Source: a virus
Taxonomy: Duplodnaviria > Caudoviricetes
Length of the DNA: 64,000 nt
IMG/VR virus record: IMGVR_UViG_3300042691_033915
Location: 1,005-65,004 of that record
Strand: one strand, 5' to 3'
This document shows, one piece after another, positions 1,877 through 34,400 of the stretch (position 1 is the stretch's first letter; each line of letters begins with the position of its first letter). A model generated the notes under the pieces. The model saw only the letters and a list, made by a program, of their open reading frames with translations. It had not been told where the DNA came from and ran no database searches. A program made the position numbers and the translations under genes.

Positions 1877-1880
1877 GGGG

Positions 1881-2213: not shown

Positions 2214-2232
2214 ACGGTCCTCCACAGACACT

Positions 2233-2729: not shown

Positions 2730-2754
2730 TGCTTAACCCTTCTTCCTGATCGGA

Positions 2755-5387: not shown

Positions 5388-5974
5388 TACAAGGCAGCCT
5401 TGCGGCTCTTGTACACGCTCTGAAGATAGGTCTTGTCGTCGTCGGAAATCTTGGCCGTCGCAATCTGCTGACCAATCTTGCCAAGCTCCGCTGCAGTCGT
5501 CGCACCGTTGATGGCGTCTGCCCACTCAATGGCGGCAGGGCTTGGTCCGTCAAACACAGCCGCTGCTGCGCGGAGAACCTCTTCGTCATCAATCTTCTGC
5601 TTCTCGCGCTCCTGCATTGGGCTGGTCTTGGCAACCCCTGCCTTGGAACGAATCTCGTCGTCAGAAGCGATGCGCTTGGATGGCAAGCCAGCCATAACTA
5701 GCGCACGACCAACAGCAGAGGTCTCGCAGTTCTCAATCTCCGAGCCGCGCGTGTATGGGGTGCTGCCAGGGATCTGCATGGCGCTATGGCCAACCCCTGC
5801 TGGCTTCTCGTCTGGGACGTCGCCGCGATACGCCTTAGCCTCAATCACAACGCGCTTGTCGTCATGCTCCAGCACGGCAGTCTCAATACGACCGTTTGGG
5901 TAGGCTTCATACCACGCGCGAATCCGCTCCGCGACATCAACGTAATCCTTTAGCGCACTCTTATCAAACGCCAC
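5387..5974 (-). CDS. putative single-strand annealing/recombination protein
   Basis: DYVDVAERI..YPNGRIET and ENCETSAVGRAL; adjacent to the exonuclease. Confidence 0.65.
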   Translation of the reverse strand: MAFDKSALKDYVDVAERIRAWYEAYPNGRIETAVLEHDDKRVVIEAKAYRGDVPDEKPAGVGHSAMQIPGSTPYTRGSEIENCETSAVGRALVMAGLPSKRIASDDEIRSKAGVAKTSPMQEREKQKIDDEEVLRAAAAVFDGPSPAAIEWADAINGATTAAELGKIGQQIATAKISDDDKTYLQSVYKSRKAAL

Positions 5975-12678: not shown

Positions 12679-13905
12679 ATGAGCGACCACCGAGAGATCC
12701 TAGGCGGATTCGAGAAGGGTCTTGAAACCCTTAACGAGTCCGTAGTGACCCGCGATTCGGGCACCGGGAAGACTTTCGACGCCGCCGAGGCCTACGCGAT
12801 TCAGAAGGACCTTCGCAAGAAGTTCTCGAAGATGAACACGTCCGACCTTCACGAGATGCTTGACATTCAGGCAGCCCGCGAGACCGGCAAGCAGGCTTCG
12901 TCCGACGTCCTTAATCAGTTGGCAGTTGCTAATCCCAACATTGCCAAGCTTCTTGACAGCAGCGGCGGCGCGGCTCTTATCCGACAGGACTTGGAGCCAA
13001 TCCTCTATTCGCTGTTTGTAAAGAAGTTCCCATTCTTCGAGCGCATTCGCAAGGAGCCGGCAAACGGCCTCGTGCACGCGTTCAACCAGCAGACCGCTTA
13101 CGGTACCGCCGTCTTCCAGACGGAAAGCGGCACCGTGACCGATGATGCCGCGACCTACGTTCGCCAGACGACCAATGTGGCCGTTCTTGCGACACGACGC
13201 GGTATCACGCTGAAGTCGCAGTTCGCCCTTAACCAGGGTGGCGGCCCATTCAACGGGCTTTCGACCGAGCTTGCCTCGGGCGTAACTGCTATTGCAGCGA
13301 AGCTCCAGACTTCTCTCTTCCAGGGCAACGCCACTGTCACCACGGGTGCAGGCGCAGCCACCGAGCTTGGCGCGTATGACGCGAACGGGTTTGATGGTCT
13401 TCGCAAGCAGCTTGGTAACGCAGCTGGTACGTCCCAGCGAGTCAACAAGTCATCCGCTACGTATCTTTCAACGATCAATTCGAACGTTGCATCGATTCTT
13501 AACGCGGGTGGAAACCCAACGGCAATCCTTGCTTCGCCAACGGATTACGCTGGTCTTGTTAACGAAGTAACCAACCTTGTTCGATACAATGCCCCATCGC
13601 AGGGCCAGCAGGTTATGGGCCTCACCCTTGGCACCGTTGTTACGGCTGCCGGTGAGCTTCCAATCCTGTCGGTTCCTGGCGACAGCATTGGTTCGTACTC
13701 GATCAGCACAGACTCGTACCGCGACATGTATGTCGTAGACGAGGATTCCTGGTCGATGCCGTACCTCGGCTCGGACTCGATCACGACGCTGGAGATTCCA
13801 GTCGGCGTGAACGGTGCCCTTTCGCGCCTTTACATTATGTATGTAATGTTTGGTCTTGCGAACAAGGCACCTCAGTTCAACGGCAAGATCCGCGTCACCG
13901 CGTAA
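12679..13905 (+). CDS. major capsid protein
   Basis: 408 aa, directly after the protease/scaffold, GGAG RBS, followed by a terminator. LFQGN and FDGLRK are typical of HK97-fold capsids. Confidence 0.85.
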   Translation: MSDHREILGGFEKGLETLNESVVTRDSGTGKTFDAAEAYAIQKDLRKKFSKMNTSDLHEMLDIQAARETGKQASSDVLNQLAVANPNIAKLLDSSGGAALIRQDLEPILYSLFVKKFPFFERIRKEPANGLVHAFNQQTAYGTAVFQTESGTVTDDAATYVRQTTNVAVLATRRGITLKSQFALNQGGGPFNGLSTELASGVTAIAAKLQTSLFQGNATVTTGAGAATELGAYDANGFDGLRKQLGNAAGTSQRVNKSSATYLSTINSNVASILNAGGNPTAILASPTDYAGLVNEVTNLVRYNAPSQGQQVMGLTLGTVVTAAGELPILSVPGDSIGSYSISTDSYRDMYVVDEDSWSMPYLGSDSITTLEIPVGVNGALSRLYIMYVMFGLANKAPQFNGKIRVTA

Positions 13906-14222: not shown

Positions 14223-14269
14223 ATAGACTCCCTATGGCGTCAAACCGATAAATTTTGGAGAATACGAAT

Positions 14270-15205
14270 ATGGCTGTAAAACTGACAATCAACGTTTCAG
14301 ACATCCAGACCGCCGTGGCAACGTATAACGCCATCCAGGTGGGCAGGGCAGCCACGTCCGCAGATGCTGCGGCTCAAAATGGCACATTCACCAATCTTGG
14401 CTCTGTCATTACCCTTAACGCCGTTGTCTCTGCCTATGAATACACGGACACCGGCTGCGCAAGCAACCAGTGGAGCACGTGGCGCTTGTACAACACCAGC
14501 ACCCTTGCGGGCGGCTCCTGGGCAACCCCCGTGCAGGGTCAACCGCTCGGCTACATCACGGTTGACGAGTTCCGATCCTATGAGATTGGTGACCTGACCG
14601 ACCCAGACGGCACCCCACTTAGCGACCAGAAGATTGAGCGCCTTATTAAGGCTGCCGGCGGGCTTGCTGACTCCTACGTGGGCTACTCGTTTGAGTACGT
14701 GCAGAACAAGGAGAAGCACCCATGGAACCAAAAGAACCGCCGGATTTACGTGCGCCAGCGGCCCATCATTTCGGTTTCAGAGGTAAGCGTTCACGTCAGC
14801 GCCCAGCAAAGCGCTAAATTCACCATCAACGATTTCTACATTAACGAGGATCGCGGATACGTTGAGGTTACATCTCTTGCTGCTGTTACTTACTCGTTGT
14901 TCCCCGCCATTGTGGCCCTGGGAATGATCGAGCCCGTGGTAGAGATTACCTACACACACGGCTATCAGTCCGCCCCGCAGCCAGTAAAGGACGCCGTGGC
15001 ACTGATCACTGTAGACTTGCTGGCAAAGGACAACCTTATTAAGCAGGGTATGGGCGGGCTTTCCCGATTCCGTATTGGTGAGTTTGAGATGTACGCCGCA
15101 AACCCACAAGGGGAGCGCGAAGGCGGTAAGGCGGGAAACAGCATCAGAATCCCACGTTCCGCTATGGCTCTTCTTGACCAGTATCAGGGGACAGCACTGC
15201 GATGA
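14270..15205 (+). CDS. head-tail adaptor/connector with N-terminal extra domain
   Basis: YITVDEF..LIKAA..ADSYVG, ITYTHGY..PQPVKDAV, AMALLDQY; expected gene position. Confidence 0.75.
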   Translation: MAVKLTINVSDIQTAVATYNAIQVGRAATSADAAAQNGTFTNLGSVITLNAVVSAYEYTDTGCASNQWSTWRLYNTSTLAGGSWATPVQGQPLGYITVDEFRSYEIGDLTDPDGTPLSDQKIERLIKAAGGLADSYVGYSFEYVQNKEKHPWNQKNRRIYVRQRPIISVSEVSVHVSAQQSAKFTINDFYINEDRGYVEVTSLAAVTYSLFPAIVALGMIEPVVEITYTHGYQSAPQPVKDAVALITVDLLAKDNLIKQGMGGLSRFRIGEFEMYAANPQGEREGGKAGNSIRIPRSAMALLDQYQGTALR

Positions 15206-15528: not shown

Positions 15529-16143
15529 ATGAGCAAGGCCGTCAGGGTGCGCGTCAAAGGTGTGATTGGCGGACTTAGCGCGCTTGCAAAAAACTTAGGG
15601 GGAATACCCAAAGAGGCAGAGGCGCAATTTGCTCGGGCGGTCCAGGTTGCTGCGTTCCAGGCGGTGTATTCAGAAGTTGCCCCAAAGGCCGCGCAGGCCG
15701 CCCCGGTTGACTCTGGCGCATTTCAGGCCGGTCTCTCTGGTCAGTGGGGGGCATTTACCTCCAGCAAGCGCAAGGCTGCCAGATACTCAAACCCGGTTTT
15801 TGATCTAACGCCATACGGTGACGACATCACTGTCGAGTACGGAAGCGACCCATTTGAGGAATCAAAAGATGGTGGAGAGCATTACTACGGGCAGTATGTA
15901 AAGTTTAACGTTCAGAAGTACCGACCCATGATCAATCAAGCTGTAACCGGCGCGGTCAAAAGCGCTGCAGAAGAATTTCTGGTGCAACTTTTCGAGAGAG
16001 CGTTAGACAGGGCCTTTTTCCCAACGAAAACTGGGCGCGGATACGGAGCAGCAAAGCTTGCAACGCTGCCCCGTTCCCGTCAGTTAAAGATCTTCCGCCA
16101 GAGAAAGTACATGTTTATGAAGAGGCAACGTGGTGCCGCCTAG
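15529..16143 (+). CDS. HK97 gp10-like neck/tail completion protein
   Basis: AQAAPVDSG and YGQYV motifs; expected gene position. Confidence 0.6.
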   Translation: MSKAVRVRVKGVIGGLSALAKNLGGIPKEAEAQFARAVQVAAFQAVYSEVAPKAAQAAPVDSGAFQAGLSGQWGAFTSSKRKAARYSNPVFDLTPYGDDITVEYGSDPFEESKDGGEHYYGQYVKFNVQKYRPMINQAVTGAVKSAAEEFLVQLFERALDRAFFPTKTGRGYGAAKLATLPRSRQLKIFRQRKYMFMKRQRGAA

Positions 16144-17423
16144 GTAAGGCGAATCAGGTACTCCGCAGATACGCCGTCTGGGTGCTGGAACAACAGCCAC
16201 TGGCATGGCTCGCCAGCAGAAGCAAGCTGCTCCTGGGCGTAGGTGTTGCTGCTCTCTGTTGAGCCACCGTTCCAATGCACGATGCCGTTGAGGTACATCC
16301 GCACTGGCGTGTGGAAGTGACCAGCAACGCTGTAATCAAACGGGGCAACGGTCATATTCCAGCCCTGAATCTTCTTTCCAAATCCGTACCAAGGGAAGCC
16401 AGCAAAGCCGCCGCCAACCTGGTCGCCATGGAATAGGAACCAACGCTTGCCGTACACCTCGTCGGTGCCAAACCAAGCCCGCTCGCCCTTGGAGATGGTC
16501 TCTACCCAATCAACGTGCTTGATGTCCTTAACCAACATAGAAGCAACCTTGTACATCATTGCGTCGGCATTGGACTCTGGGTGGAACGTGCCCTTTCGGC
16601 CAAGTCGCCCATGGTTGCCAATTGCGCCAACAACACGGATGTTCTCAAAGGTTGCCGCCAATCGGCGAACAAGCCCAGCAAGGATTTCCGCGCCACGGAA
16701 GGTCTGGTTGTAGAGAGATGCGTCAATCAAGTGCGCCTGCCCAGGGAAGATGTCTTCTCCCTCAACTAGGTCGCCAAGCAGATACACCCGCAAATCCGTT
16801 ACTGGGTGGTCTGCTCGCTGAATCGCCACAAGTGACTCTACCTTTGCCGCAAGCAGCTCAATTCGCTCTGCGCAAATGTCGCTGTTGTAGGTTGGGGTAA
16901 TCTTGCCAAGCTGCCAGTCAGACAAAAGCAAGATGGCGGTTTCAGGTGCGCTCTTGCGCTTATCCTTGGCCGGAGCCTTAACGGTAGGAAGCGTAATGGC
17001 AGCAGCAGCGTCGCTTGCGGCCTGGTAAACAGCGCGAACCAGCTCTGCTCGGTCGTCGTCCTTTTGGGACAACTTGCGAAGGGCCGCGCGATGAGCCTGC
17101 TTCAACTGTTCAATCTCGCTTCGCACCGCTTCTGATGACAGCTCATCTTCTACAACCTTGGCAACAGCGTTGCGGTCAATTCGACCCTCGCTTGCAACCT
17201 TGGCGGCAAGCGTTCCAGGGAACACGTTGCGCACTGAGCCGTTGTGAACCCGCCTGTCAATAAACGAAGCCTTCCCGTTTAGAAGGGTGTTGCGCTTAAT
17301 GCGATAGGCGTTGGGTGTTCGGGTTGGATACTTTGCATGGAAATCTTCCCACTCCATGCTCACGGCATCCGCCTTCTCTTGGGGGGTCCATGAGAGCACT
17401 AATCGGTCATGACCTTTTTCCAC
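16140..17423 (-). CDS. calcineurin-like metallophosphoesterase with N-terminal coiled coil
   Basis: LSDWQLG, LGDLVEG, GNHGR, HGD, GHFH. GGAGG RBS supports GTG at 17423 rather than the track start at 17903. Confidence 0.85.
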   Translation of the reverse strand: MEKGHDRLVLSWTPQEKADAVSMEWEDFHAKYPTRTPNAYRIKRNTLLNGKASFIDRRVHNGSVRNVFPGTLAAKVASEGRIDRNAVAKVVEDELSSEAVRSEIEQLKQAHRAALRKLSQKDDDRAELVRAVYQAASDAAAAITLPTVKAPAKDKRKSAPETAILLLSDWQLGKITPTYNSDICAERIELLAAKVESLVAIQRADHPVTDLRVYLLGDLVEGEDIFPGQAHLIDASLYNQTFRGAEILAGLVRRLAATFENIRVVGAIGNHGRLGRKGTFHPESNADAMMYKVASMLVKDIKHVDWVETISKGERAWFGTDEVYGKRWFLFHGDQVGGGFAGFPWYGFGKKIQGWNMTVAPFDYSVAGHFHTPVRMYLNGIVHWNGGSTESSNTYAQEQLASAGEPCQWLLFQHPDGVSAEYLIRLT

Positions 17424-17550
17424 AAAACCTCCAATACTTCCGGCATAGTTGCCGCGCCCATAGTATACCCGCCACGCAACCTGCACGCATTTTTTTGCGT
17501 GTAGATGTCTGTGGGCTGGAATCTTACTGAATAGTTGGTAATCTACACAC

Positions 17551-17949
17551 GTGGACGGTATATATGAAGCTTTCTTTACGGCGCTGAGCGGGGACTCGTC
17601 CCTGCAAACCTTGCTGGGCGGCTCGGCGACAGACAAGAAGGTATATCCGATCACAAACACGGGACGGAGCACGCTTCCTGCGGTGAGAATCGCAGTAGTA
17701 GCGGGTAGTAGCGACTTAGGGCTGCCTATTGACAGACCTGTTGTTGACGTGCTTATTGCAAGCAACGCCAGCGCGACAGAGCTGAATAATATTGGTAGTG
17801 CTATAGATGCGGTACTTAACCGTGAGCGTCTGTCTGGACCAAACGGGGCAGTCTTGCACGTAGCGCGTAAAATCGCACAACGTGACGGATATGACCCAAA
17901 CACTTTAGAATATCGGCGAGTAATCCGATATCAAGTCATAAAAACTTAA
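17551..17949 (+). CDS. tail terminator protein
   Basis: ALSGDSSLQTLLG..KVYP...; 132 aa; directly before the tail tube gene. Confidence 0.7.
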   Translation: MDGIYEAFFTALSGDSSLQTLLGGSATDKKVYPITNTGRSTLPAVRIAVVAGSSDLGLPIDRPVVDVLIASNASATELNNIGSAIDAVLNRERLSGPNGAVLHVARKIAQRDGYDPNTLEYRRVIRYQVIKT

Positions 17950-18915: not shown

Positions 18916-19215
18916 ATGGCAAACCTGTCTCAGGTTAGACCTACGAAGGTCCTTACCCTTAATGACCTCGCCGATATCGAGGAGAAGTACGGCTCGCTTG
19001 ATCAGATTGACCTGACCAAGTTCACCGTCATTCGTTATATCCTTTGGCTAGTTCTGAAGAAGGACGAGCCGCAGCTTACCGAGCGCGAAGTGGGCGACCG
19101 CTTCAGCCTCGACACCATGCGAGAAGAGATCGATAAGGTCATGCGCGCAAGCGGTCTTCTTGGCGGTGAGGCTGAGGGCGCTGCGGGAAAAAGCGAGGAG
19201 GCGGCAAAGGCTTAG
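18916..19215 (+). CDS. tail assembly chaperone (gpG-like)
   Basis: AGGAG RBS; ends shortly after the slippery site G GGA AAA. Confidence 0.8.
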   Translation: MANLSQVRPTKVLTLNDLADIEEKYGSLDQIDLTKFTVIRYILWLVLKKDEPQLTEREVGDRFSLDTMREEIDKVMRASGLLGGEAEGAAGKSEEAAKA

Positions 19216-19466
19216 GTTGGAGCGAAATCGACTGGGGGAGCATCATGGCTTCCTACGCGGACAGCTTTGGCTTTACCCCCAGTGATTTTTTCAACTTAAC
19301 CCTCGCCCAGCTCAATGCCTTCTCTCAGTACGCTGAGAAGCGCGATGAAGATATGAAAAAGCGTTCCAAGGGCCAAGGAAATAAAAAGGGCGCAGGAACG
19401 TCAAGCATTGACTCCATTGAGCAGTTAGTGGCAACATTCGGTAAGCCGGGATTCGGCTCGTCCTAG
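19185..19466 (+). CDS. tail assembly chaperone frameshift extension (gpGT-like, -1 frame)
   Basis: The -1 frame from GGGAAAA at 19185-19191 is open through track ORF 19245..19466 (FGFTPSDFFNLTLAQL). Confidence 0.8.
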   Translation, partial: GKKRGGGKGLGWSEIDWGSIMASYADSFGFTPSDFFNLTLAQLNAFSQYAEKRDEDMKKRSKGQGNKKGAGTSSIDSIEQLVATFGKPGFGSS

Positions 19467-19485: not shown

Positions 19486-22400
19486 GTGGCAGATACGGCA
19501 GACCAGTCTAGCACTGGACAGATATCCATTGGTCTTGATACCAGTCAATTTAAGGCTGGAACACAGGCCATCCTTGCGGATATTCGACTGCTTACCCAGG
19601 GTCTTAATCAGTTTGAGGCAGCGGGAAGTAAAGTCGGATCGTCTTTCCGGGGGTTGCGACAAGCCTCTCTTTCACTTAGGCAATTCAGAAGTGCGGTCGA
19701 CGCGGACGCAATTCCTGCACTGCGAAAACTGCAGCTTCAGGCAAACGCCTCTGCTGCAAGCCTAAGCAGGGTATTCAACGTTGGGGCTCAGCCCAATAAC
19801 GCTGTTTCTGGTATTCAGCGCGTTACCAATGCCTTGGCGGCACAAGAGCGCCAGGCAATGCGAACCGCAGACGCGATGGCGCGTGCAGCGATGTCGCAAA
19901 ACCGCACGGGCGCAATGGCATTTAGAAATGCTGGGCGCTCAGGGAGCGGTTCCTTTGGTCGAGGTGGGGCAGGTACGGGAGCCGCAGGAACGCGCGGCGC
20001 CCGCTCCTCACTAGACGATTCCGGGGCGGCTGCCCGCTCTATACCCAGCATAGCGGGCATATCAAGGGCCGCGCTTGGCCTGGAGCTCTCTAAGCGCTCC
20101 GGCATGCGCAAGGCAGGAATTGCCGTTAGGGGCCGGACAGGGGATACGGGACCATCCTTTGACACAGACCAAGGATTTATAGCAAGAGAGTCCAGGTCGC
20201 AGCTTGGTTCCCGTCTTCATGCGCGAGAGCTTGGTCAATATATTTCAAGGTTGCTTGCCTCAGAAACTGGCGACGTCTCGTATCCAGTTGAATCATTAGA
20301 TCTAAGAAACTATGCATTCCGTGGGAGTCGATTTGGACCGCCAAAGCCAAGGCGAAGATCAGGACGCTACGGCACTCAGCAAGCAGACCTAGATCTCTTT
20401 GAAAAGGGATTAGAAGCAGGAGACTTAAACCTTATTGAGCAAGCCTTTGGCGGGCCGCGATCTCGCCTAAGAGAAGACGTCCGGCGTTTGCCTGCGTATC
20501 TGCAAAATTTAATTAAGATGGCTAGAAACGCCAGGAGATCCAGCAGCACTTTCTTCCCGCGCTCTAATCCTGGCAGGCCAATGTCGGTCCACATCCCCGG
20601 TCGAGGCCTAACAGAGCTCTCTAAGAAATCGGGCAGGGGCGGCAGCGGTGGCAACAAGGATATTGACCGCGTAGTTAGCCAGCTATTCCCGCAAGGATGG
20701 AAATTTGAAAAGCGTAAGGGCGGCCACAACGCCGTCATTGCTCCATCTGGCCAAAAAGTATTCTACCCATCATCAGCCTCAGACCGCCGCGCAGTACAAA
20801 ACTTTATTTCCGAGCTGCGCAAGAAGGGTGCCGTTATCGATGGTCGTGGCTACGGCGGCAAAGAGGGCAAGGGCGGGCCGAGCGAAATGTCACGACGCTC
20901 TGGCGGGCGACCCGTTGCTGAGACAGCCTTTGGTTTTGTGCCAGACCGCCGACTTCTGGAAGCAATGCGCAGGGGCGACATGTCGTTTGGCCAGGAGATT
21001 GGCGCTCAACGCCTAAACACAAGGAGAGTATCCGCCACTGTTTCTATGGGCGGAAGATCGGGCCCCGGAAGATATAGCGGCACGGCTATTGCCATGTTCC
21101 CAGAGAACGACAGGGGCCTTCGTGGTCAATCGGGGCGAGAGGTTGGAAGAAACCTTGGGCAAGGAGACAGAAAGACTAGGCGCACTAAACTTTCTCCATA
21201 TAGCCCGATGGCAGAAAAAGTATACGAGGTTCTTGGCGCAATGCTTGGGGCCCCTACGCCTGCGGTCGTTAGAAGAAGGCTAACTCCACTAGAGCAGCAA
21301 CTGGCCACTGGCGGGACACTGCCGCAAGTTGGTTCTTCAGCCAGGGCAAACATTGGAAAAACCCGCAGAGTTGCTTCTGGAAGATTTGAAAACCCACAAG
21401 TGCGTCAACGCCGACCAATGGGCCGCAATGCATGGATGATCCCGTGGCTTGACGATTTCCAACCAATGAAGAGCGTACTTCGCGGGCACCCGACATTTGA
21501 CAACGAGATTAGAACGCAGGCGACCAGACAACTTGGATCAACACGAGACATGCGACGCATCATGCTCCTTGATCAGATCCTTGGTCAGACAGATCGACAC
21601 GGCTCAAACATGATGGTCGGCAAGGGGCGCGGCGGAAAGCGAAGAATTCTTGGAATTGATAACGAGCATATGTTTAGCATGGGCGGCCTCAATAGGCCTA
21701 TCTCAGATCTTGATAGGCAGCTAAACAATACGCCGCAATTCTCGTCATTCTCTGCTCGCTATACGCCGAGAGATGTTCCGCAGGGTGGTGGCACATTGCT
21801 GCCGTGGATGACAAAAGGGAGCGGCTCCAGCCTTTCAAGAATTAAATTAACAAAGCAGGAGCAAGATGCATCTGCGCGCGAAGCAAAAACCCTAAGGGGA
21901 ATCCTTGGCGGCAAGAGGTCAATGAAGATTGTTGAAGAATCCTTCTTGACTGCTGGCTACTCCAAGAGGGACACCGATAGGTACATGGCGGCCCTTCGAA
22001 CAAGGCTAGAGGCTGCGGCAATTACAAGAGAGTCAGAGGCATCTTCCGGGAGCAGCGATGCCGGCGATTATTCGAAAATGTTGGAGATGTCGCGCCGATC
22101 TGGTGCACAAAGAAGGCTTGCATCAAGAGCCAGAGCAACTGGTCGCGGGGTCATGCTTCCTCATGATCTTCCTGGTGGCGATTTTGCGGAACTCCCAAGA
22201 CCGCTTCGGCTGCTTGGCGAAATGCTGCACAGAAAAGAAGTAAACAGGGTAGCTCGGCCGGTAGAGTTTGAAGATTCAACTAGGTCGTCTTTGGTTACGG
22301 GAGAAACGTTTACTCCTGGCCGAGCAAGCAGGGGCTCCCGCCCTGTAATTCCTCAAAACCTTGCTGGCCGAAGCCCAGAGCAAATTTTTGCAGAAGCGCT

Positions 22401-25400
22401 TGTTGCTTCGCACAACGCTGGTATGCGGGTTCGAGAGATTGGCGCAGACCCTGAACGTTTGATTAATGCTCAGCTGCAAGCTATGGGTGTTTCCGTTGCG
22501 CAAGATGGAAACGTTAGGAGAATTATTTCTCGATCAGATCAAATGACTGCAGCGCGCGCGTATCAATTGTTTAGGAGACAGCAAAAAGGAATGGGCTCAA
22601 TTGCCGCATTGTCGCCTGGCTCAGTTAACGTGAGCTCATGGTTGGGCCAACAAGGCGGCGACGAGGGCTCGCGCAAAGACCTTCTTGGCGGAGCCCTTGA
22701 TGCAATGAGCGGTTTTGATGCGTTTAGAGAGGTGAGCGCGGGCACCGCCGGGGCACGCAGAGATAGAAGGGCTGGTCAGAGCGGTAACCGCAGAATTGGC
22801 CTTACGGGCGGATTTATTGCTACCGCGCCTAATAGATTTTACGTTCCAGGGATGCCCGACGCTGCGGGCTTAAGGAATCTTGTTGTTGGCGCAATGACCC
22901 ACAGAATGCCTGGCACACACGAGCAGGGCAAGCTTGCCGGCCTAAAGGGCATTGGGGTGCCAGGTGTCGGCACTAGCCTTATGGCTTACGAGTTGCGTCG
23001 GCACGCGCGGGCGATCATGGAAGCTCGCAGGCGGTACCCCGGTGCCCTGGAGGCTAAGTACGGTGTAACCCCAGAAGATCTTTCAGCACTAGGCAGGCCG
23101 CAAGGTTCTCCTCGCGGCCTTAGCTTAAAGGCGAGCGGTTCTGGAATGGGCCTGTACGAAGCGCTTGGCTTTAGCTTTAGCGATCCCGTTGACGAAGACG
23201 GGAAACTACCGAGCCGATTTATGCACATGGGCGGGCACGCAGTTGTTGACACGTACGAAAAAATCCGCGCAGAGATTAAGCGCGTAGAGGCGGGCCTTGC
23301 CGCTCAGGGCATTGCTTACAGCCCAATGGAGTTTGCGCGAAGGTCGGGTAAGGCTTGGACCGACCCAAATCTTGAAGACCGAAGAACGAGTATTTCAAGC
23401 AGGCTAGTTCCAATGATTTCAGACCCAGAGCAGCTTCGCGTTTCAGAAGAAGACTTGCTTGGGCCGTTTACCAGGGGGACGCGTTTTAAGCTACAGAGCG
23501 AAACATACACTTCTGGCCCATCGGCAGGCAAGCCAATTGCCCGACCAAAATCCCATCGTGGAGTTAAATACTACACCGCCACAACTCCAGGCGGCATAAA
23601 GATCGTCAACATCCCCGAGGACATTGACAAGGGAAGATTGCAGCAACTAATTGCCTCTACGGAAACAATGCGCAGAAAATACCCAGACAAGTATTTTCAG
23701 GTAAACCTGCAATACGGCAAGAGCGACAGGGGGGCTCTGGGCACAGCTGATCTTGGCGGGTCATTAATGGAGCTACGCGACTCGCTGTTTTCGGAATTTG
23801 CAGAACAAACAACGGGGTGGCGAAATGATTTTGAAACATTTGCACCAAAAAACCCCAATCAGGTGCGAGAGCATTATGGGCCTTGGGAAGAGGGAAAGCG
23901 CAGAAAGTTCAGAATGGTCCCTCGTGGCGCCCCAGATGGACGCCACGAAACTCTTGACAACGCACAAACTTTGGTTGCTCACGAATTTGGCCATTTGTTT
24001 TCCCCAGATCAGTGGGGTAGACGGCTTTGGAAAGAGGCAGGATTCCAAGGAACAATGGCTGGCGCCTCGATGCCATACCTTGACTTTAGAAGAAGAGGTA
24101 AGGGCGTCTCAGGGGAATATGGCGACATGGCCACAATTTCCCAATGGCACGACCAGGGACGGAGCCCGGGCGGCGCAATAAAAGATTTCCTTTTGCCTTA
24201 CGAAAGAATAAACTCTAGAGGAAGCTACCGGGGTGCTCCGGGGTATTTTGGCGGGGAATACTCTCCAGGGAGTAAAGCGAATAAGGAAATGCTTGGATCC
24301 CAACATCCGTTGAGAGAAGAAATTTTTCCGGCCATGATGCGGAAGATTGGCGAACTTATGGTCATTGGTGAGTATGGCCCGCTTTCTGCAGTTCTTCCTA
24401 GGTATCAAAAGAAGACAACATCTAAGGGTCGAACACGCATGCCTGGAGACACAAAATTCCAAACCATTGAAGAGGCCATGGACGAACTTTGGAGGATTGG
24501 CGGATACCGCAACGCGGAAACCACATCCCCTGCTTCGGAGTGGTACGCCTCTATGTTTGAGAGGTACAGCACCAGATCATTTGGTCAACCCGGAGCTATC
24601 CCAAAGCACAACATGCTTGGCTATCGCGTTGCAAGGATAATAGCTAAAAACTCTGGCTGGGCTGAGTACAGCAAGCGCTCAGGTGGTATCGGCGGGATGC
24701 TTGGCGGTCTCTTTGGTAAGGGCAGACCGAACATCATGCAGCAGATCACGGGCGGACAAACCTATGGGATGACGCTAGAAGACCTGCTGGGCGGAGAAAT
24801 TATGCCCGGCATGGGAAAAGCGCCTGAAGGGTTCACGGGCGCAACTGGAAAACAAATCTTTAACCTGAAGACCATGGCTGGAGAAATTAGACAGGTTCTT
24901 GCGCAGCCAATAGGCGGCGAGTACTCCCAGGGTGGTCGATTCCCAAACAAGGCAATGGAGATCCTTGCTGGGCTTCTTGGGGTGGAGACCCCAACAATTC
25001 TGGAGCGCAGCATTGGCGGCAGGAGATTGGCCATTCAGCCGATAGCCCCAGCGGACACCGCAAGCAGATTTGTCCAGAAGCGCAACGCGCCCCCATCCAA
25101 GAGGGTTGATGTATGGGAAGACGACGAAATTATTGGCTTCTTCTCTCAGCCCTTAGGCCCGAGCTCAGATGATCCAGACCTTCGCAAGCAGCCGTGGCTT
25201 GCAAGCAGGGGCGGAAGGCGCATGCAGATCCTTGATCACATTGCGCAAACATTCGACCGTCATAATTCAAACTATCTTCTCAATTTAATTGACCCCCAGG
25301 CTGGCCTTGGTCAGCCTGGAAATTATCGCGTTACCGCAATTGACCACGATCTGACCCTTAGCCCACCGGGCACTGGGGTATTAGGTCGGAGTCCATATCG

Positions 25401-28400
25401 GCCAGCCAGCAATGTGCCAATTGGCATCCCCGGACAGTTCCGGGACACTCAAACAAAACTCGCAAGGGAAGAAGCCGCTACCCTTGCGGGCGTTATGACG
25501 CGGCGAAAAGTTATAGAGCCGCAATTGCTTGAAGCATTGCGAGCAGGGGGATATAGTGAGCAGGAAGCACTCGCAACAGTCGATGCTATCTTCAGACGCG
25601 CACGTGAAGCGTTTAGGAGTCGCATGGCTGAATCGCGGGGCGCAGCCCGGCCGGACGGTCGGGAACTATCACGAAGATCAGGGGGTGGCGGTATGAACGG
25701 CCTGACGAACCCCTTTGCCGAATACAGCAAGCGCAGCGGCGGCGCAGCCACAAAAGATCCATATACATCCTTGCAGACCGCCTTTGAGCAGGTCACCCTT
25801 ACCGCCATCAAGAACCTGAAGGTATCCCTTGCTGGGCAGAAAGTAAGTCCTCAACTCCTTAGAAGCAGCTTTGCATCTTTCCAGCAAACAATTCTTGACG
25901 CAGCTACGGGCCAGGGAGAATTTGCTGGCGGCTCGATGCAGAAGGCGCTGCGCGGCATTGCACCAAAGGCACGCAAGTCCTTGATGGGCATGTTCAGCGG
26001 CATCCTGCAGGATATGGTGGACACGGGCACCGCCGCATTCAAGCGTGGCGACTTGAAGGGCATCCCTCTTCGCAAAGTGCTGTTCGGCATGCTTGGCTCA
26101 GTGCCGTCAACCTATGCGCCAGACATTGCGCAGATTGCCGCAAACCCAGCGCTTCAAGGAAAGAAGCCGAGCGGGAGCAGGGACAGAATCCCAGGAATTG
26201 CCGGAATAAATAAATACGCCACTGGGCTACAGCAGCTTGGCGGAGTTCCAATAGCTGCAGGGTTGCGCCTTGCTGGCTCCGCCACGCTTGATCAGCACCT
26301 ATTGGATCAAGGGTTTAACCCAGAAAACTATCGAGGCAGGGCCGGAATTGTTACCGACCTAATGCAAAAATATATGCCGAGCAGCCCAGGACTTCCTTCG
26401 GGCCTTAGATTCACAGACACACTCACCCCAGACAGCGAGGGTCGAAGTTCTTGGGGTAACTACATGCCAAGTAGGGGTGCGGGCATGGTTGGGCCAGGAA
26501 CGGCATACCCAGATGATCGCGTTGGGCAAATTTCTCTTGATCTTGGTAGCCAGGGGGGCATGCGGCGAAACGGCCTGGACAGAAGCACAGTAACCATTGG
26601 CAAGCTACTGGCAACGACGGCACATGAAATTACGCACAAAATGGTTGATGAGGCACAACTAGAAGCCGCAAAACTTTCTATTGGAAAAACTGACGCAGAG
26701 AAAGAAGAAATTCTCAAAAAGGTTACGGCCGCCAGGGGCGTACCGCAGAAAGATAAGTATAGGGCATACTCTGGTATTTCCGGGGAATACATGTTTGTGC
26801 CAAAAGGCAGTGCCCCAATTGGCGCACGTCCAATACCGCTGGGTAGCGGACAAAACCCAGAGGCTTACAGCTACATGGAGCTGCCAAAGGGTTCAATTAC
26901 AGAGTCGGAATACAAGGCTTTAAGCCCCAAGGCCAAGGCATCTTACGAAAAGGGCTACGTAACTGCAGATCAAGCAAGGGCAATTGACTCCAATGCAGGT
27001 GGACAACACATTAACGTCCCTGGACACTTTGGGCCACAGGCAGCAATGCTTGATGATTTTGGTGCCGGAGTTACGGAGTACGCACAGCTTCTTGCAGCAT
27101 CTACAAGGATTTTGCAACCAGGAGAAACACAAGCAAGCCTGCTCAGGTCTACGGCACAAATGAATGCTGGGTCCCGAGCAAACATAACTAGCTTCTCTGC
27201 GGCAACCCCAGGGGTTGCGGGAGTTTTGAACCCATTCCAGGGCGGCTTGCTTAAGGCATTTGATCTTTCCAAGGCGACTGGCGTGGGCTCATCCATGAAG
27301 CCAGTTGCTGAATTCCTTGCAAGGCTTCAAAGGAATATGTCCAGTCAGATGACCGACGCAACGGCCGCTGGTGGGCTTGACCCTAAGGATCTTGGCTCCA
27401 TGTTTACAAAGGCGCTTGCAAAAGCAATAGAGGCAACGCCAAAGGGCGAGCGATCCAGCGCTCTTTCGGCAATACGCCCAGACAGAATGCTTGACGCAGC
27501 TGTCATTCTTGACAGCATCGGTAGAGCAAAAAATATTCCGGCGTTGACGCGGATGATTGATGCGGGCGGGGCAGTTCCCGCAGTTTCAAGCCCGCATGGC
27601 ATTATGGGTTCAGACACGGAAACCGACGCAGACGTACAAAAAATTAACCGAGAGCTTGCCCGGGGCGGAGGGTCTCGCAAAAGAAAGCCAGCGCCCGGAC
27701 CGGCCCCAACCCCAGGCGCAGGACCTGGACTTGGATCTTTGCCACCAGACAGAATTGCAGTCATTGCCCCTAAGGGCGCTGATTTGCTCAGCAAACTCAC
27801 AGAGATTTTGTCAATGGGTGTTTCTGGCGGCGGGAAGGAAAATATTCCTCTCCGCAAGGTTATTCGCAAGGAAGCCGGACTGCCCGACCGACCACTCAGG
27901 GGAACGCAGCTTGCCACGGATAGCCTGACGAGTTCGGGCATTGCTGCGCTTGCGGAGCAGTTCCCAGAGCTTCTGCCGTTTGTACGAGAGTACAGACCAA
28001 ACCATCCGCTTCTTGGGCCTCAGCCAGGAACCAGGCTTCCTGCCACGAAGCGCGGGCGACGCGGAAGCGTAATTCAGTCACGTATTTCGACCTCAACGGC
28101 GGTGCAGCCATACGCTGACACCATGGACCCAGACTATTACCAGAATCAGGCCGATGCAATCTTTGGCTCCCGAGTCAACGATGCCTTTAACATGCTTGGC
28201 GGCCAGAACGGTCTTGGCTATTCGCCACGGGGATTTGGCAACCATATGAACGTCCTATTGGACGTAATGCCAGAAGATCAACTTCAGGGAGGCATAGACA
28301 AGCTTAAGCAGTTTGGCGCAACCATGAAGGACGCCTTCCTAAACTCCAAGCCCGTAGTTGGTTTGATGCAGGACTTTGATGATGCAGTGCTTAGGGCGGC

Positions 28401-31400
28401 AGACGGATCGCTGGACTTCAGTAAATCACTTGATGCGGCAACCGCGAGTAGCGGTGGGTTGGTAAATCAGCTGAAAGAAACGGTAAAACTTGCCGTTGCA
28501 TTCGTTCTTACGCAGAACGCTGCTAATGCTATTTACCGATCTATTAGCCACCTTTCCTCAGGTTTTATCCAGTTTAACCAGTCGCTTGAAGACGCCAAGG
28601 TAGGCTTCTCGACACTGTTCTACAACGCTGGCGATTCCATGGGCGTGGCCGAAGGTCGCGCAACTGGAATGATCGAACGCTTGAAGGAATTTGCTAACGT
28701 AACGCCGTTCTACTTCACGCAGCTGCAAGAAGCAGCTGTCCGAATGCAGGCTTTCGGTCTTGACATCGGGCAGGTTCTGCAGAGAGACCCGAATACGGGC
28801 GAGCTTGTTGGTTACATTAAGAACATCGGAGACGCAGTAGCCGCACTCGGTGGTGGCGATGAAAAGATCATGCGCATTACGTATGCGCTTGGTCAGATGA
28901 ACTCCGCTGGTCGCGTATACCAAAACGACATGATGCAGCTGGCAAACGCCGGTATCGCTGGATACGAAATCCTTGCTGAGGCTCTTATTAATGAGCTTGA
29001 AGCCAAGGGCAAGGACATGACTAATGAGGATAAGAAGATCCTCAACGACTTGTACACAAACCGCGTAGAGGCAATTCGAAAGCTGACAACTTCAGGAAGA
29101 ATTTCTGGTAAGGCTTCGGCTGCTGCCATCCTTTCTGGACTTGGCGAAAAGTACGGCGGCGGAATGGAGCGGTTGTCTAAGACGATGACGGGTGCGTTGA
29201 GCACCGTTTCCGACATGTCTCAGTCGCTTGTTGCAACCTTGACTGGGCCTCTGTACAACGCAATTAGAGACCTAGTTGTTGAGTTCGCAGGCGTTTTGCA
29301 AAGACCAGAAACCTTGGCCGTTTTTGTTACGATGAGCCAAAAGTTGCAAGGCTTTGCTGCTACGATAAAAGAAGCAATTCCCGCAACAGTTGCTACAATC
29401 GTTAATGCGTTTACCTACCTTGGCGGAATTATTGCTAAGGTCTTTGGTGGATCTGGAACCGCAAGCGCTGTTGACCTCCTAAGGTCAGGCCTACAGACAA
29501 TAGGGGATCTCCTTTCTAACAATGTAGTAAGAGCCGCTATCCTGGCAAGCGTTGCACTAAAGGCAATGATGTCAGTTGTTTCGGCAAACCCGCTTGTTGC
29601 GACTATTGGCATTGTTCTTGCGGCCCTTGGGGCCCTCCGTCAAGCCTACGAAAGTAACTTCCTTGGCTTTGCGGATACAGTCGACAACGCAATGGCACCG
29701 CTTGCGGAGATGGGCCCGGATATTGCCGAGTCTATTATCCCGGCGCTCAAAGAACTTATTGCTGCTGCGGCTCAGGTTATTGGCGGCGGTTTGGTTCTTG
29801 CGCTAAAGGCGGCATTGCCGATTATCTCCGCTCTTGCCAGCGCTCTTGGCGGCATGGCTGGAATCCTTGAAAAACTAGCCCCGCTCATTGGTGCATTCAT
29901 GGGGGCGTGGATTGTAAAGAAGGTTGCCATTGAAGGAATGGCTATTCTATTTACCAAACTGCAGAATGCAGCCGCATCAGCCGCAATGGCTGCTGGTGTT
30001 GCTGGGGTTCAGATGTCTTCGTGGGGCAAGCCTGGGGCAACCTACTACTCGCAGAAAATCCCTGTTCGAGCAGAAACCGTGGAGACAGAAGATGGACCGG
30101 TAACTGTATATAGGTCTGCCGCCCCAGAGGAGGGCCCAGGTGCAATCTCTAAGGGTGTTTCAATTGGCGATACGGACAAGGCCAGAGGCGCCATTGCTGG
30201 GCACATGCCGTTTGAGAAAATGTATGCCCTACCGCCAGAGCTTGCAAAAGTTCGATTGCAGTATTTGTCTAACGAAGGAATTATTGACCCAGCAACCGGA
30301 AAGCTGGCCGGGCTTGATGAGCAAGCCGGCACTGCGCAAGGTGCGCGCACGGAAAACAAAATTTTGCGATCAAGAAGCATGGAAGAAATTCTTGCTGCGT
30401 CAGGACGAGTTACGGTAGAGCAAATTGTAGAAGCAAGAAAGCAGCTAAGAGGGGACCAGGCACTTCAAGAGGCAGGTCTTGTTGATGTAAGTGAAACTGG
30501 AGAAGTTACCGCAAGCGAGCGAGGGAGAAGGTTCCTTCGAGAAAAACTTGAAAACGAACGTCAACGCCGAGCATTTGATAATGATATTTCAGTAGAGGAG
30601 CAGGTAAAGCGCGACCAGGCAGAGGCTGCCAGCATTAGGCAGGCCAATAAAGAGGGCCAAAAAGTTCTTGGGTATGTGCCAAGGCAGATTCCTGATTATG
30701 CCATAACCCCAGCTCAGCTAACCCCCGAAGAGGAGCTACAGGCGCTTCGTGGGCTAAAGGGAAGAACCTTTAAGGAAGGGTTTAATTACAACTATACGGC
30801 AGAGCTTTCTAGGCGCCATGCCGAGGCTAGGGCGGCGGGCAGGTATAGAACCGGCCTGGACGGATCAGAAATTCCAAACCTTGGGCTTACAGGAAAACTG
30901 CGAGCGCGAGGCGTTGCCACCGTTAAGACAATAAGCGACATGTTCGCCATGGGCGGACAAACCGAAATGATTGGCACGGCAGCTGATAAGTTTGGCAGCC
31001 TCGCCATGGCCACAAGCGGATTGCTGATGGGCTTTGAGGCCCTTGGCTCTACCGTTGGAATTAGCAGCAAGGAGCTGCAGGGCGTCTCAACGGCCCTTAT
31101 GGGTCTGGCTATTGTCTCAAAGGGTGTTGCTGCCGCAATGGCGGGAATTAGTGCCGCTGGCGGCCTAAAGAACGCCCTTAGTGGTCTACTTGGCTCCATG
31201 GGCGGGCCTATCGGCGCATCAATTATGGCCGCAATGGCTGGGGCCGTTTTTGTTGCGTCTGAAGTCTCTAAGCACGAAGCAGAGGCGCAAGCGTATAAGA
31301 ATCAAAGGAAAGATGACAAAGAGCGAGAAAAAGCAATTAAGACCAATTGGAACGAAAGCGGGCTTGGCTATCAAGTTCCGCTGATGGCTGGCGGCGAAGC

Positions 31401-34400
31401 GCAATATGACCTTTATGGTTTCTCCGATGGGAAGACCCTTGGTGGAAACATGGGCCAATCCAAGATTGACGAGCTCGTCGCGCAAGGATTGTTTAAGAAG
31501 GAAGCCGGCGCAATACCTGGAAGATTTACTTACACCCCAACAGAGGCAGGTAGGGCAAAGGGATACATTAGCGCAAAGGCGCTAACGCAAGCCGCAACCC
31601 CAACGTTTGGCTCTGCCCCAACTGCGGCTGTTAATAGGGTAGACGACCTTCTTGTCAGCTCCACTGGCGGAATTATGGAAGCCACGCCAGCGGAAAGAAT
31701 GGGTCAGGACAATGCAGACAAGCTGCAAACACTTCTTGAAATGGGTGTTGTCAGCGAAGATTTTATTAATCAACTTGTTACAGACATCCGCATATCAGAC
31801 AACGCCAGTTTCTCTGGTACTTATAGAGACATGTACGAGAAATCAGGGGTTATACCGGCTATGCGCGAGAGGTATGGCGCGGCCTACGATAAGTCGTTTG
31901 ATCAGCAACTGTTTGGCTTGTTTAGTACGTTCGATCCAAAAGATTTCATGACCGAAATCTTAAAATCGGAAAACACAGATCGGGCAATCCTTAATAAGCA
32001 TGGACTCAGCCAATACTCGTTTACTGGAGAATATGGAAAAGAGGGCGTGCCAAACGAGGCAATCTTCTCAACGTCTGAATCTCTAAAGCTTCTTAACGAA
32101 AGCCTAGACGACGCAAGCAAGGCGCTTGACGAAGCAAAGAAAAAGCTGTCTAAGCTGTTTGACCCATTTGCAACTGCCTTTGAGCAGTTGATGGGCAGGG
32201 CTAAAGAGCTTCTCCAGCAAGAGTTCCAAGTGGAGCAGGAGCAGCTTAACGCCGAAATGGAAGACGCGTTGTACAACGTTGACGCGCTGTACAACGGGGA
32301 AACCATGCGCCTGGGTGTTTTGGAAGAGCAATACAAACTGCTCCAGGAGCAAAAAGCAGAGCAGGAAAAACTTAATGCTCTTAACGACGCGCAGGAAAAT
32401 GCCGCACGGGCAACCCTTGGGTTGTTTGACGCACAGCAAGACCCAATCCAGGCAGCCATCGCCGCAAGAGAGGCTGCTCAGAAACTGCAAAAAGAAGAGC
32501 AAAACTATCAGCTTAACCAGATGTCTGAATCAATTGATCAGGCAAAGAATAGCGTTCAGTATCAACAGACAACAACGTATTACGACGAGAAGAAAGAAAC
32601 TCTTACGGCAGATCAGGCAGAGCGCTCTAGGCGCCTAGAGGAGCGAGCGCAGCAACTTCTTAAGGATATCCAAGAGGGCAAGATTACTGTAGCCGCAGCT
32701 CAGGAAGAGTTCATGGCAATGTTTGGCGATGCCGGCTTGCCACTTGAATCTATTCTTGAAACTGGCCAGTTCCAAGGCGAAGCCCTTGCGGACATTATGG
32801 GCACAGCGTTTGCCACAAGATTCCAAGAGCTTGGCGACATTATTGTCACCACAATGGCGGATGTGGTCAAGGCTGGTATTGCGGCGGCGGCAGCTGAGGC
32901 AAACGTCGACGCCATTGTAGATCAGATTGACAAAATTGAAAACAAGAAAGACAAGATTAAGAAAAAGGATGTTGAAGCTGAACGAGACCGGATGAAGCAG
33001 GTCCTCATAAAGTCTCGGGCTTCTCTTGACGCATACTCAATTAGCGAGGGTGTTCTTGGCACAGAAGCTGGTAGAAAAGCTAACGCTGCGTCGGAAAGCC
33101 TTGTATCGCTGATTTCCGATTTGGGCAAAATGGACTTTTCTCAGTACGGCGAGTACCTAACAAGGGCTCAGTTCGGTACAGAGTTTGACCGCATTTACAG
33201 CGTCATGGATAACATTTACAAGACCTTTGGTCCATTGCAAATGATTAGCCCGACCTACGGCGATAGCCGTGATCGAACCGATCCAACGCAGCCAGTAATC
33301 AGAACAAGACCACCAAAGCCAACAACATACCCAGTGGGGCACCATGCGGGCAGTGGGTACTGGTATCCGCTCGGCGACGTTGAGTGGGCGTTCTACGATT
33401 CTATGGGTAACTTTGTTGAAAAGCGCGCCAAGGGCGGACCGGTTGGTGCCGGTCAATACATTGTCGGAGAGCGTGGGCCAGAAATGCTCACAATGTTCCC
33501 CAATGGTGGTGGCTACGTCACGCCAAACCATGAGCTTCCAAATAGCATTCAATCCTCTGCTGGCGCGCTTAAGGCAGGCAAGCAGGGACGATACTACGGC
33601 GGCCTGGTTGGTGTAACTGGTCGAGCTGGCGGCGGATATGTCGGTCCAAACCGAGACACCTGGAACTACGATACCCCGTCGGAGAGCTTTACTAGAAGCT
33701 TGGGCTTCGTTGGCGATCCTGTGGGCTTCCAGCAGCACTCGTTCAACGAGTTTATGGATAGCCCGAGCAGGACAAAGGTCGAGAAGAATGAACTAGCCCG
33801 TAGGTTCCCAAAGAACTACGCTCGCTATGTGGCAAGCAAAGTTCGCAGTGGCGGACCAAGGGGCTGGAGCCCAGTCGTCGGTAGAGCCGATGGCGGATAC
33901 CTTGGGGGATGGGATTCTTGGGATAGGCCACAGCCAGCCGAGACGCCAATTCCAGACAAAAAGGGTGGCTATGGGATAGATAGTTGGGGCGCAAGAATTC
34001 AAGACGAAAATCTTGTTAACGGCATCCCTTCGGGAAGAGTTCATTTCCTCGGCGACCTAGACCCTATTCAAAAAATTTGGAACAAGCTTGGTCCAAACGA
34101 AGGGAAAATCGGCGGAAGCGGAGATAAAATTCGCTTTGACTGGGGCGACGTAATTATCTCAGACGACTACAGAAGAACGGGCCAGACGGTTGACTTGGCA
34201 GCTCTATCTGAAGCTGCAAGGCTATCGCTTGCGGCAGCTCCGGAAAACATGTTTGACCCGAGCGATAGAACAAAAAGGGTAACAATTGTTATTACGCCAG
34301 ATTTAGGGGAGTCAGTAACGGGTCGAGTAAAATACCCAACTGGGCCAAGGAAAAATCACATTTACCTTAACCCCAGAGGAAGCACAAAGAGCGGCACCAC

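Follow-up and report, generated by a model that had tools for sequence, protein, structure and literature searches.

The window analysed here, a 64,000-nt stretch (positions 1,005 to 65,004) of the virus record IMGVR_UViG_3300042691_033915, encodes a siphophage-type structural block (Table 1). Within this block, one uninterrupted open reading frame (ORF) encodes a predicted phage tape-measure protein of 5,495 amino acids (aa), which carries at its front a series of enzyme-like modules, all of them closed by one and the same heptad, E[LMFY][SA][KR][KR]SG. Judging from the sequence, this heptad most likely marks the places where the modules would be cut apart. The phage group to which the protein belongs is uncultured, and its members were found in metagenomes only.

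Annotation of the ORF revealed the Pfam domain TMP_3 at about aa 3053–3251 (nt 28642–29238; E 2.5e-11, 44.1 bits against a cut-off of 41), an NCBIfam match to tape_meas_nterm that was marginally over its cut-off (21.8 against 21.35) and matches to 5 PHROG tape-measure families. Annotated tape measures in 27 phage records were also matched by tblastn at 25–28% identity, with all the alignments limited to the TMP_3 domain. The ORF is located downstream of the likely tail tube gene and of the tail assembly chaperone pair G/GT, at which the slippery heptamer GGGAAAA stands at 19185–19191 and the -1 frame remains open until a stop at 19464–19466, 20 bases ahead of the tape-measure start (both the frames and the heptamer were read directly); the pair presumably uses a -1 frameshift of the lambda G/GT type. 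Since TMP_3 was matched over threshold and the chaperone pair lies just upstream, the predicted product is a siphophage tape-measure protein; the original prediction had proposed a tape measure.

The ORF is unbroken in its complete relatives too (5,429 aa in L015, 5,438 in L016, 5,178 in L007 and 5,165 in both L008 and L009), and its GTG start agrees with theirs, as the proteins of the relatives begin at the same place. On the other hand, the gene call of the record (P0003; 4,921 aa) begins at Met575, 574 residues late, and misses the front (19486–21208). The public annotation thus has no N-terminal domain, three sites fewer and two and a half modules fewer, while another gene call, P0002, begins at the Met directly after site 1. 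The architecture is best explained by three parts: an N-terminal domain (S1, aa 1–199), a 1,886-aa cargo of six modules, numbered here 2 to 7, and the ruler (aa 2086–5495). None of the 5,495 residues, cargo included, is a cysteine, compared with 0–1.2% cysteine in the neighbouring proteins, and 69 of 78 related tape-measure ORFs are likewise cysteine-free, which suggests that cargo and ruler are under one constraint or travel by the same route.

Table 1. Features of the tape-measure ORF and of the surrounding structural genes (nt positions are those of the window)
Feature	Position (nt)	Strand	Residues (aa)	Remarks
Tape-measure ORF (P0001)	19486–35973	+	1–5495	5,495 codons, uninterrupted
N-terminal domain S1	19486–20082	+	1–199	aa 10–186 65–69% identical to 6 of 8 clade-2 proteins
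Site 1, ELSKRSG	20083–20103	+	200–206	Retained in all relatives covering it
Module 2	20104–20613	+	207–376	No match in Pfam, PHROG or NCBIfam
Site 2, ELSKKSG	20614–20634	+	377–383
Module 3	20635–20883	+	384–466	Small phage family phrog_2089; faint HicA-like signal
Site 3, EMSRRSG	20884–20904	+	467–473
Module 4, PI3/PI4-kinase-like 1	20905–22083	+	474–866	DRHGSN at aa 703 (nt 21592–21609)
Site 4, EMSRRSG	22084–22104	+	867–873	QMSRRSG in all covering relatives
Module 5 ('GNAT' of the original prediction)	22105–23328	+	874–1281	Sole cargo family common to clade 2, multicopy there
Site 5, EFARRSG	23329–23349	+	1282–1288	Aligns with R/K-F-A-K-R-[SG] ending the same family in clade 2
Module 6	23350–24663	+	1289–1726	HEFGH at aa 1499 (nt 23980–23994)
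Site 6, EYSKRSG	24664–24684	+	1727–1733	EYNRRSG in L001
Module 7, PI3/PI4-kinase-like 2	24685–25662	+	1734–2059	DRHNSN at aa 1924 (nt 25255–25272)
Double site (sites 7 and 8)	25663–25740	+	2060–2085	ELSRRSG aa 2060–2066, 12-aa spacer aa 2067–2078, EYSKRSG aa 2079–2085 (from nt 25720)
Ruler (tape measure proper)	25741–35973	+	2086–5495	No further full site
HExxH module 2	26002–27228	+	2173–2581	HEITH at aa 2380 (nt 26623–26637); candidate in-cis protease
Third HExxH, HETGH	34459–34473	+	4992	C-terminal insert between VGERGPE at aa 4661 and 5415
Tail assembly chaperone pair G/GT	18916–19466	+		G = 18916–19215, 99 aa, phrog_2115 tail protein, E 2.9e-10
Likely tube protein	17962–18702			Gene-order position only; no match in Pfam or PHROG
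Head-tail adaptor	14255–15205
SU10-type major capsid protein	12679–13905
S78 prohead protease fused to ferritin-like domain	10906–12672	+		Peptidase_S78 E 3.7e-7, 30.8 bits against cut-off 21
Portal	7952–10099	-

Exactly 8 copies of the heptad were detected by regular expression, at aa 200, 377, 467, 867, 1282, 1727, 2060 and 2079. The original prediction had listed these eight positions, noted that the codons vary among the copies and found no full copy in the tape-measure half, and all of this stood: the rest of the ORF beyond aa 2085 contains no full heptad, and a looser 5-residue pattern gave a single additional match, at aa 4975. A six-frame scan of the whole window identified no heptad outside this ORF. 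The motif is far commoner than in shuffled sequence, as 20,000 shuffles of the first 2,100 residues contained a mean of 0.00115 copies, with a maximum of 1. The surroundings of the sites are rich in glycine, with a mean fraction of 0.21 within 12 residues on either side against 0.125 in the N-terminal half, a value equalled by 0.24% of 10,000 random site sets.

The closest relatives, referred to as clade 1, comprise three proteins with 71–83% identity, found by a long-protein search in 5.8 billion protein clusters, and six IMG/VR contigs. Every site covered by the six contigs is retained. Substitutions are confined to E/Q at position 1, L/F at position 2, S/A/N at position 3 and K/R at positions 4 and 5, while Ser6 and Gly7 are invariant and their codons shift among TCA, TCT, TCG, TCC and AGC and among GGC, GGT, GGA and GGG, respectively. 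L001 showed only 7 sites with the strict expression, and its sixth site, EYNRRSG, was recovered with a wider pattern. Indels and hypervariable stretches were identified immediately after sites 5 and 6. Mean column conservation in clade 1 is 0.88, at which the relatives are too close for a meaningful contrast between the motif and its flanks. As the covered sites are kept, replacements respect the residue class and the codons for Ser and Gly show synonymous change only, these comparisons indicate selection on the peptide itself, conserved at the protein level both within the ORF and across the relatives, and show the heptad, as far as sequences can tell, to be a selected peptide signal in Gly-rich joints between independently evolving modules.

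Three other explanations of the heptad were examined and rejected. The differing codons rule out a DNA-level repeat, and a Tat-type twin-arginine signal is ruled out by the interchange of K and R and by the lack of a following hydrophobic region at most sites. As for internal translation starts, an M is present after site 1, yet no Shine-Dalgarno-like stretch was seen by eye before it, and the continuous ORF in all complete relatives also contradicts such starts.

Searching with the front of the ruler (aa 2086–3600) retrieved eight giant proteins with 37–39% identity (P0008–P0015), here referred to as clade 2, and eight more distant ones. Only four parts are common to the window protein and clade 2 in local blastp: aa 10–186 (65–69% identity), the back part of module 5 (aa ~1080–1287, 28–32%), the ruler and the last ~100 residues (80–86%). 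Two of the eight clade-2 proteins are N-truncated gene calls in which S1 is not covered. Homology stops at aa 186 and again at aa 1286–1287, and that of the ruler resumes at aa 2086 in 3 of the 8 proteins, at aa 2120 in 4 and at aa 2056 in 1. Instead of the kinase-like, HicA-like and HExxH-1 modules, which are absent, clade 2 carries 3–5 paralogous copies of the module-5 family.

The modules of clade 2, different as they are, are closed by a site of their own form, [RKQ][FY][AND][KR][KR][GS]xL, as in EVQF-AKKG-KLGG, SVRF-AKRG-SLSS and REQY-ARRG-SLAP. The final site, T-SKRG, stands ~21–23 residues beyond the preceding one and just ahead of the ruler; thus, a double site with a short spacer right before the ruler is present in both clades. 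Alignments between clade-2 units span whole inter-site segments (for example, residues 1–293 of 293 against 1–292 of 292), and the clade-2 proteins differ from each other by whole units, P0008 having one ~340-aa unit more than P0012. What the sites of both clades have in common is just the order hydrophobic, small, basic, basic, small, with no conserved Ser, Thr or Lys. The generic pattern [LMFYW][SAN][KR][KR][SG] occurs 8–9 times in 4 of 4 clade-1 proteins, 2–6 times in 8 of 8 clade-2 proteins and 0–1 times in 8 of 8 distant giants, compared with shuffle means of 0.30–0.65.

Boundaries defined independently of the motif coincide with the sites, namely the clade-2 breakpoints, the extent of phrog_2089, which fills the 83-aa module 3, and the alignment of the two kinase-like paralogues, which runs up to the motif. 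The claim that the copies fall at module boundaries is therefore supported, and so is variation of the modules among related tape measures, since cargo differs between the clades and clade-2 proteins have gained or lost entire inter-site units. The evidence thus supports sites that appear to bracket modules and a cargo that varies between clades.

Beyond the two clades, the loci L017–L078 represent a large uncultured family with tape measures of 1,500–5,600 aa that have in common a YQNDMMQ stretch of TMP_3. Among 78 wider-family loci, at least 2 generic matches upstream of the TMP_3 motif were found in 15, all belonging to clade 1 or 2 (several of them being the same contigs fetched twice), and 0–1 in the other 63. 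The stretch ahead of the TMP_3 motif ranges from 259 to 3,112 residues, and front-end expansion is a general theme of the wider family. A crude k-mer scan, which could miss weaker motifs, covered 27 giant ORFs taken from these loci, 25 of them belonging to other clades and one each to clades 1 and 2, and detected no other recurring joint motif.

Other searches extended the family little. Querying 50,697 phage records by tblastn with aa 1–2105 gave no match, and a word-index search for shorter proteins found 2 fragments only. Scanning metagenomes with the alignment of the first kinase-like module resulted in 404 pattern matches with no relative among them, and a scan of genome contigs with P0013 resulted in 23 pattern matches, again with no relative, so that these contigs showed no prophage or host. 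Anchor scans with the N-terminal domain recovered 8 viral and 2 metagenome loci and no new clade. For aa 867–2066, exhaustive phmmer in 1.84 billion representatives returned only the protein itself and one 278-aa fragment.

Annotation of the cargo modules gave mostly sub-threshold signals. The N-terminal domain S1 showed a weak match to the tape-measure N-terminus family phrog_1293 (E 0.007). Module 3 belongs to phrog_2089, a family of unknown function (E 5.3e-10, residues 7–80 of a 97-aa piece); the HicA-like label of the original prediction kept this family and a faint signal in Pfam HicA_toxin (E 0.057), which at 14 bits is below the gathering score of 27. The kinase-like labels were likewise left with signals below threshold. 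Module 4 matched PF00454 at E 3.1e-5 (24.4 bits) and module 7 at E 0.009 (16.4 bits), both below the gathering score of 27.1, although precomputed Pfam annotations list the same family for the gene call of the window itself as well as for 3 of 3 clade-1 relatives. The two modules are paralogous, with 25% identity over 311 aa (E 6e-8), and both contain D-R-H-x-x-N followed by I-D (DRHGSN with GIDNEH, and DRHNSN with AIDHD), which we take to be, together with the downstream I-D-x-x, the catalytic-loop signature of PI3/PI4-kinase-like enzymes. Clusters of the ESM Atlas named PI3_PI4_kinase, Fam20C and HipA_2 were found for them with scores of 0.93–0.95, which are to be read as leads only.

The label 'GNAT' for module 5 was not supported, as no such match was obtained in Pfam at E≤1 or in the PDB with the sequence, a clade-1 profile or a 10-row cross-clade profile; the resemblance to the GNAT G-x-G motif is one seen by eye. 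Neither Pfam nor PDB searches gave a family match for module 6, which has HEFGH. Against the PDB, phmmer with three of the modules returned 0, 1 (E 0.46) and 0 matches, and the profiles A2, A3, A4 and A5 returned matches at chance level only, while NCBIfam had no match in the cargo region. AlphaFold2 models of aa 200–1290 and aa 1282–2300, each from a 7-row alignment, had a mean predicted local distance difference test score of 35.0 and 33.3, respectively, with no residue reaching 70. With regard to the several effector domains expected of a polyvalent protein, six modules were delimited, with family matches below threshold; DdrB-ParB was not found by Pfam in the window.

HExxH motifs are present at aa 1499, 2380 and 4992 and are conserved in relatives. 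The first, in module 6, is kept across the clade-1 proteins despite 35% identity between the window protein and P0005, with flanks at 75–95%. The second belongs to HExxH module 2 (not to be confused with cargo module 2), which starts ~90 residues past the last site. In its alignment (A4), H208, E209, H212, E221, H336, N338 and H342 are invariant, so that a Glu stands nine residues after the second His and a block H-x-N-x-x-x-H-F-x-P-Q follows. A hidden Markov model of this module matched 29 of 99 related proteins and ORFs, all of them of clades 1 and 2, and 0 of the remaining 70; it is present in every clade-1 and clade-2 protein, being the sole HExxH of clade 2. Upstream of it, at ~26152–26172 (aa 2223–2229), there is a conserved element of the form basic-basic-(Pro)-Ser-Gly (GKKPSG in the window, KKRPSG in L016 and RRRSG in clade 2), whose Ser and Gly are invariant in the same alignment and which could represent either a ninth site in degenerate form or a pseudo-substrate.

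The original prediction had named a zincin in the cargo. Zincin is a tentative label for these three regions, as Pfam, PDB and NCBIfam searches gave no zincin profile match for any of them and what they have in common is HExxH. For HExxH module 2, the best ESM Atlas score was 0.77 (a lead only), Pfam showed nothing relevant on the members of its alignment, and the PDB gave no match. The ORF has neither a GDSGG-like nor a subtilisin-like motif. A complex prediction of HExxH module 2 with a 61-aa piece containing sites 7 and 8 scored 0.00, which weighs neither way. On its position and distribution, HExxH module 2 is the best candidate for a protease acting in cis.

We suggest, with a rough probability of 0.5, that the heptad is a protease recognition site with the cut beside its dibasic pair; HExxH module 2, acting in cis, would most plausibly make this cut once the protein has been ejected. 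The recognition site would extend from about P5 to P2', with E/Q, a bulky hydrophobic, a small and two basic residues followed by two small ones, and a cut next to the dibasic pair would separate the modules from one another and from the ruler. By analogy with the giant tape measure gp96 of Thermus phage P23-45 (see below), which is uncut in the virion, cutting would most plausibly occur in the host, where HExxH module 2 may work in the way of the MARTX cysteine protease domain, which acts on Leu sites separating the effectors of these toxins. In favour of cleavage are the form of the site and its strict placement at joints, the fact that both clades have a double site ahead of the ruler and that the ruler itself carries none, and the precedents, which include polyvalent proteins (see below). 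A ruler without sites is consistent with a ruler that has to stay whole.

Several points weigh against cleavage. The strongest is again P23-45, the one studied case, in which the fused enzyme is found in virions within the full-size protein; cargo on a tape measure can therefore be delivered and work uncut. A cut at site 1 would also detach the conserved N-terminal domain from the ruler. Moreover, the flavour of the motif tracks the upstream module, with F-A-basic-basic after the family shared by the clades and [ML]-S-R-R-S-G after the kinase-like modules, so that, instead of a free linker signal, the motif could be a conserved cap at the C-terminus of each module. No recognised protease family occurs anywhere in the ORF, the three 'zincins' being marked by HExxH alone, and the co-occurrence of HExxH module 2 and the motif may merely reflect the shared ancestry of clades 1 and 2 as sister clades.

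Most of these points are accommodated by an uncut joint, in which the heptad would be a basic docking or anchoring motif, binding perhaps the tube lumen, the G/GT chaperone or a host factor and spacing the modules in one intact protein. The enzyme that stays attached to the N-terminus of full-size gp96 in virions, the tracking of motif flavour and the missing recognisable protease all fit, and the conserved N-terminal domain would remain on the ruler. However, a motif that docks to tube or chaperone would be expected along the 3,410-aa ruler as well, where there is none, and the invariant small residues after the dibasic pair and the tandem double site with its spacer are typical of cleavage sites. 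Moreover, gp96, the model of an uncut protein, has a single generic match, about the chance level. An uncut joint is thus a possible but doubtful explanation.

Cutting may instead take place during assembly, by the S78 prohead protease or a host protease, in which case the ORF would be an expression polyprotein, the modules would act late or be packaged otherwise, and only aa 2086–5495 would be found in the tail. A Peptidase_S78 is indeed encoded in the window (10906–12672), and the lumen of a siphophage tail would be too narrow for folded modules of 170–440 aa. Nevertheless, prohead proteases act within the procapsid, and their normal targets, the capsid, scaffold and portal proteins, do not contain the heptad. 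The cysteine-free composition, which spans cargo and ruler alike, and the precedent of P23-45, which puts the cargo in the virion, also speak against assembly cutting, and we consider it unlikely.

Far less probable is a modification site, for example one whose Ser is phosphorylated by the two kinase-like modules of the protein. Basophilic kinase sites do have basic residues adjoining the Ser, as here, but clade 2 retains the signal without a kinase-like module (PF00454 is listed for 0 of its 8 proteins), K and R are freely interchanged, and clade-2 sites read A-K-R-G, with neither Ser kept between the clades. Since no Ser, Thr or Lys is conserved across clades, protease subsites fit the pattern better. 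Finally, that the repeats are a functionless relic of composition or module duplication, carried along by paralogous modules such as the kinase-like pair or the shared family in clade 2, is hardly credible, as the heptad also follows the unrelated S1, module 2, phrog_2089 and HExxH-1 modules, shuffles yield 0.001 copies, and it is retained while flanks and codons change.

If the heptads are cleavage sites, a broader picture can be drawn tentatively. The whole 5,495-aa protein would be loaded as a self-processing effector magazine, a phage counterpart of MARTX, and ejected ahead of the DNA; the HExxH module would then cut the joints and orphan enzymes would be released, while each joint would serve as a portable cassette boundary for the gain, loss or duplication of modules. 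Perhaps, on the same tentative footing, the released set includes two PI3/PI4-kinase-like modules, a HicA-like module and a metalloprotease-like module in addition to others. Delivery of several separable enzymes would in that case have been shown for a tail tape measure for the first time, and the protein would provide a defined pair of site and protease that can be tested with simple reporters. The cargo at aa 867–2066, with no relatives beyond the small group among the 1.84 billion representatives, may hold new host-takeover or anti-defence activities. Even if the protein remains uncut, a function is still needed for a signal of seven residues that two clades conserve despite their different cargo.

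The C-terminal region of the ORF (33466–35973, aa 4661–5495) has two VGERGPE motifs of the tape-measure C-terminal type flanking an insert, which holds the third HExxH. In P0005, the insert is replaced by unrelated sequence (identity 0.14–0.30 over aa 4801–5400), and the tail end of the protein may be a second swappable module. Directly after the tape measure, a 2,649-aa ORF (35970–43919, + strand) with 11 cysteines showed no Pfam match at E≤0.001; the two ORFs together occupy 24.4 kb of the 64-kb window, the contig of the record having 65,004 bases. A 587-aa exonuclease-like gene (16140–17903, - strand; phrog_284, E 4e-43) lies on the opposite strand amid the head-tail block, between the connector genes and the tube gene. 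In the S78 fusion protein, the S78 part covers aa 48–170 and the ferritin/Dps-like part aa 206–343 (Pfam Ferritin E 3.7e-12; phrog_3636 E 1.6e-23), and the remainder consists of a long acidic Ala/Glu/Pro-rich stretch and a helical scaffold-like tail. The ferritin-like domain would be delivered to the capsid and is reminiscent of encapsulin cargo.

Literature searches found no tape measure with a repeated inter-module motif, and the known systems resemble the window protein in part only. Mycobacteriophage TM4-like tape measures also carry an activity used at infection, but as single peptidoglycan-hydrolase motifs in the ruler, with neither a module array nor joints. Ejection proteins of the T4 and phiKZ/SPN3US types are processed at the prohead protease motifs L/I-x-E and S/A/G-x-E. 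These head-internal and ejection proteins are, similarly, ejection-bound virion proteins cut at a short recurring motif; however, they are cut after Glu, by a T4 gp21-type protease and inside the capsid, whereas the window protein belongs to the tail, and across the two clades Gln, Arg or Lys may take the place of the Glu. Flavivirus NS2B-NS3 and kexin/furin-type convertases cleave where a dibasic pair precedes Gly, Ser or Ala. The window motif is similar in its form, a basic pair and then a small residue, and in its repetition within one polyprotein or precursor, but neither type of serine protease was found in the ORF and the resemblance is confined to the site.

The closest precedent is gp96 of Thermus phage P23-45, a 5,002-aa tape measure with an N-terminal virion RNA polymerase, which is found in virions inside the full-size protein and is thought to act in the host while attached (PMC10770324). 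It is likewise a giant tape measure in which the N-terminal 1,000–2,000 residues are an enzyme cargo, carried by the virion and used in the host, and it too has 0 cysteines. On the other hand, gp96 has one cargo enzyme against six modules, no repeated joint motif (1 generic match), no HExxH and no blastp similarity to the window protein at E<1e-3, and it was reported as full-size in virions (PMC10770324).

Polyvalent proteins of phages and conjugative elements resemble the cargo in having many effector-type domains, such as kinase, GNAT and peptidase, in one virion-associated polypeptide, and processing in cis by their zincin-like metallopeptidases was proposed (Iyer et al. 2017, PMC5512222). 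Their hallmark DdrB-ParB is carried by distant relatives of the window tape measure (precomputed for P0016 and P0017, sub-threshold in L019 and L022). Unlike the kinases of the window, which look PI3/PI4-kinase-like, those described there are of the Ser/Thr/Tyr type, and, with no hallmark domain at threshold in the window, membership of the class is unproven. The main text of that article has no tape measure, linker or defined cleavage site, and its supplements may list such architectures.

With MARTX toxins the likeness is one of working logic only, as these are unrelated in sequence and biology. They are bacterial toxins acting against eukaryotic cells, with a cysteine protease that is activated by inositol hexakisphosphate (InsP6) and cuts after Leu, at sites that lie in unstructured segments between effectors (PMC2900308); the window protein, by comparison, is a phage tail protein with a dibasic site and an HExxH candidate only. 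What they would have in common is a very large translocated protein, an exchangeable array of effectors, short sites between the modules and an in-cis protease that releases them in the target cell. If cleavage at the heptads is true, the window protein would link polyvalent proteins, enzyme-bearing giant tape measures such as that of P23-45 and autoprocessed modular toxins.

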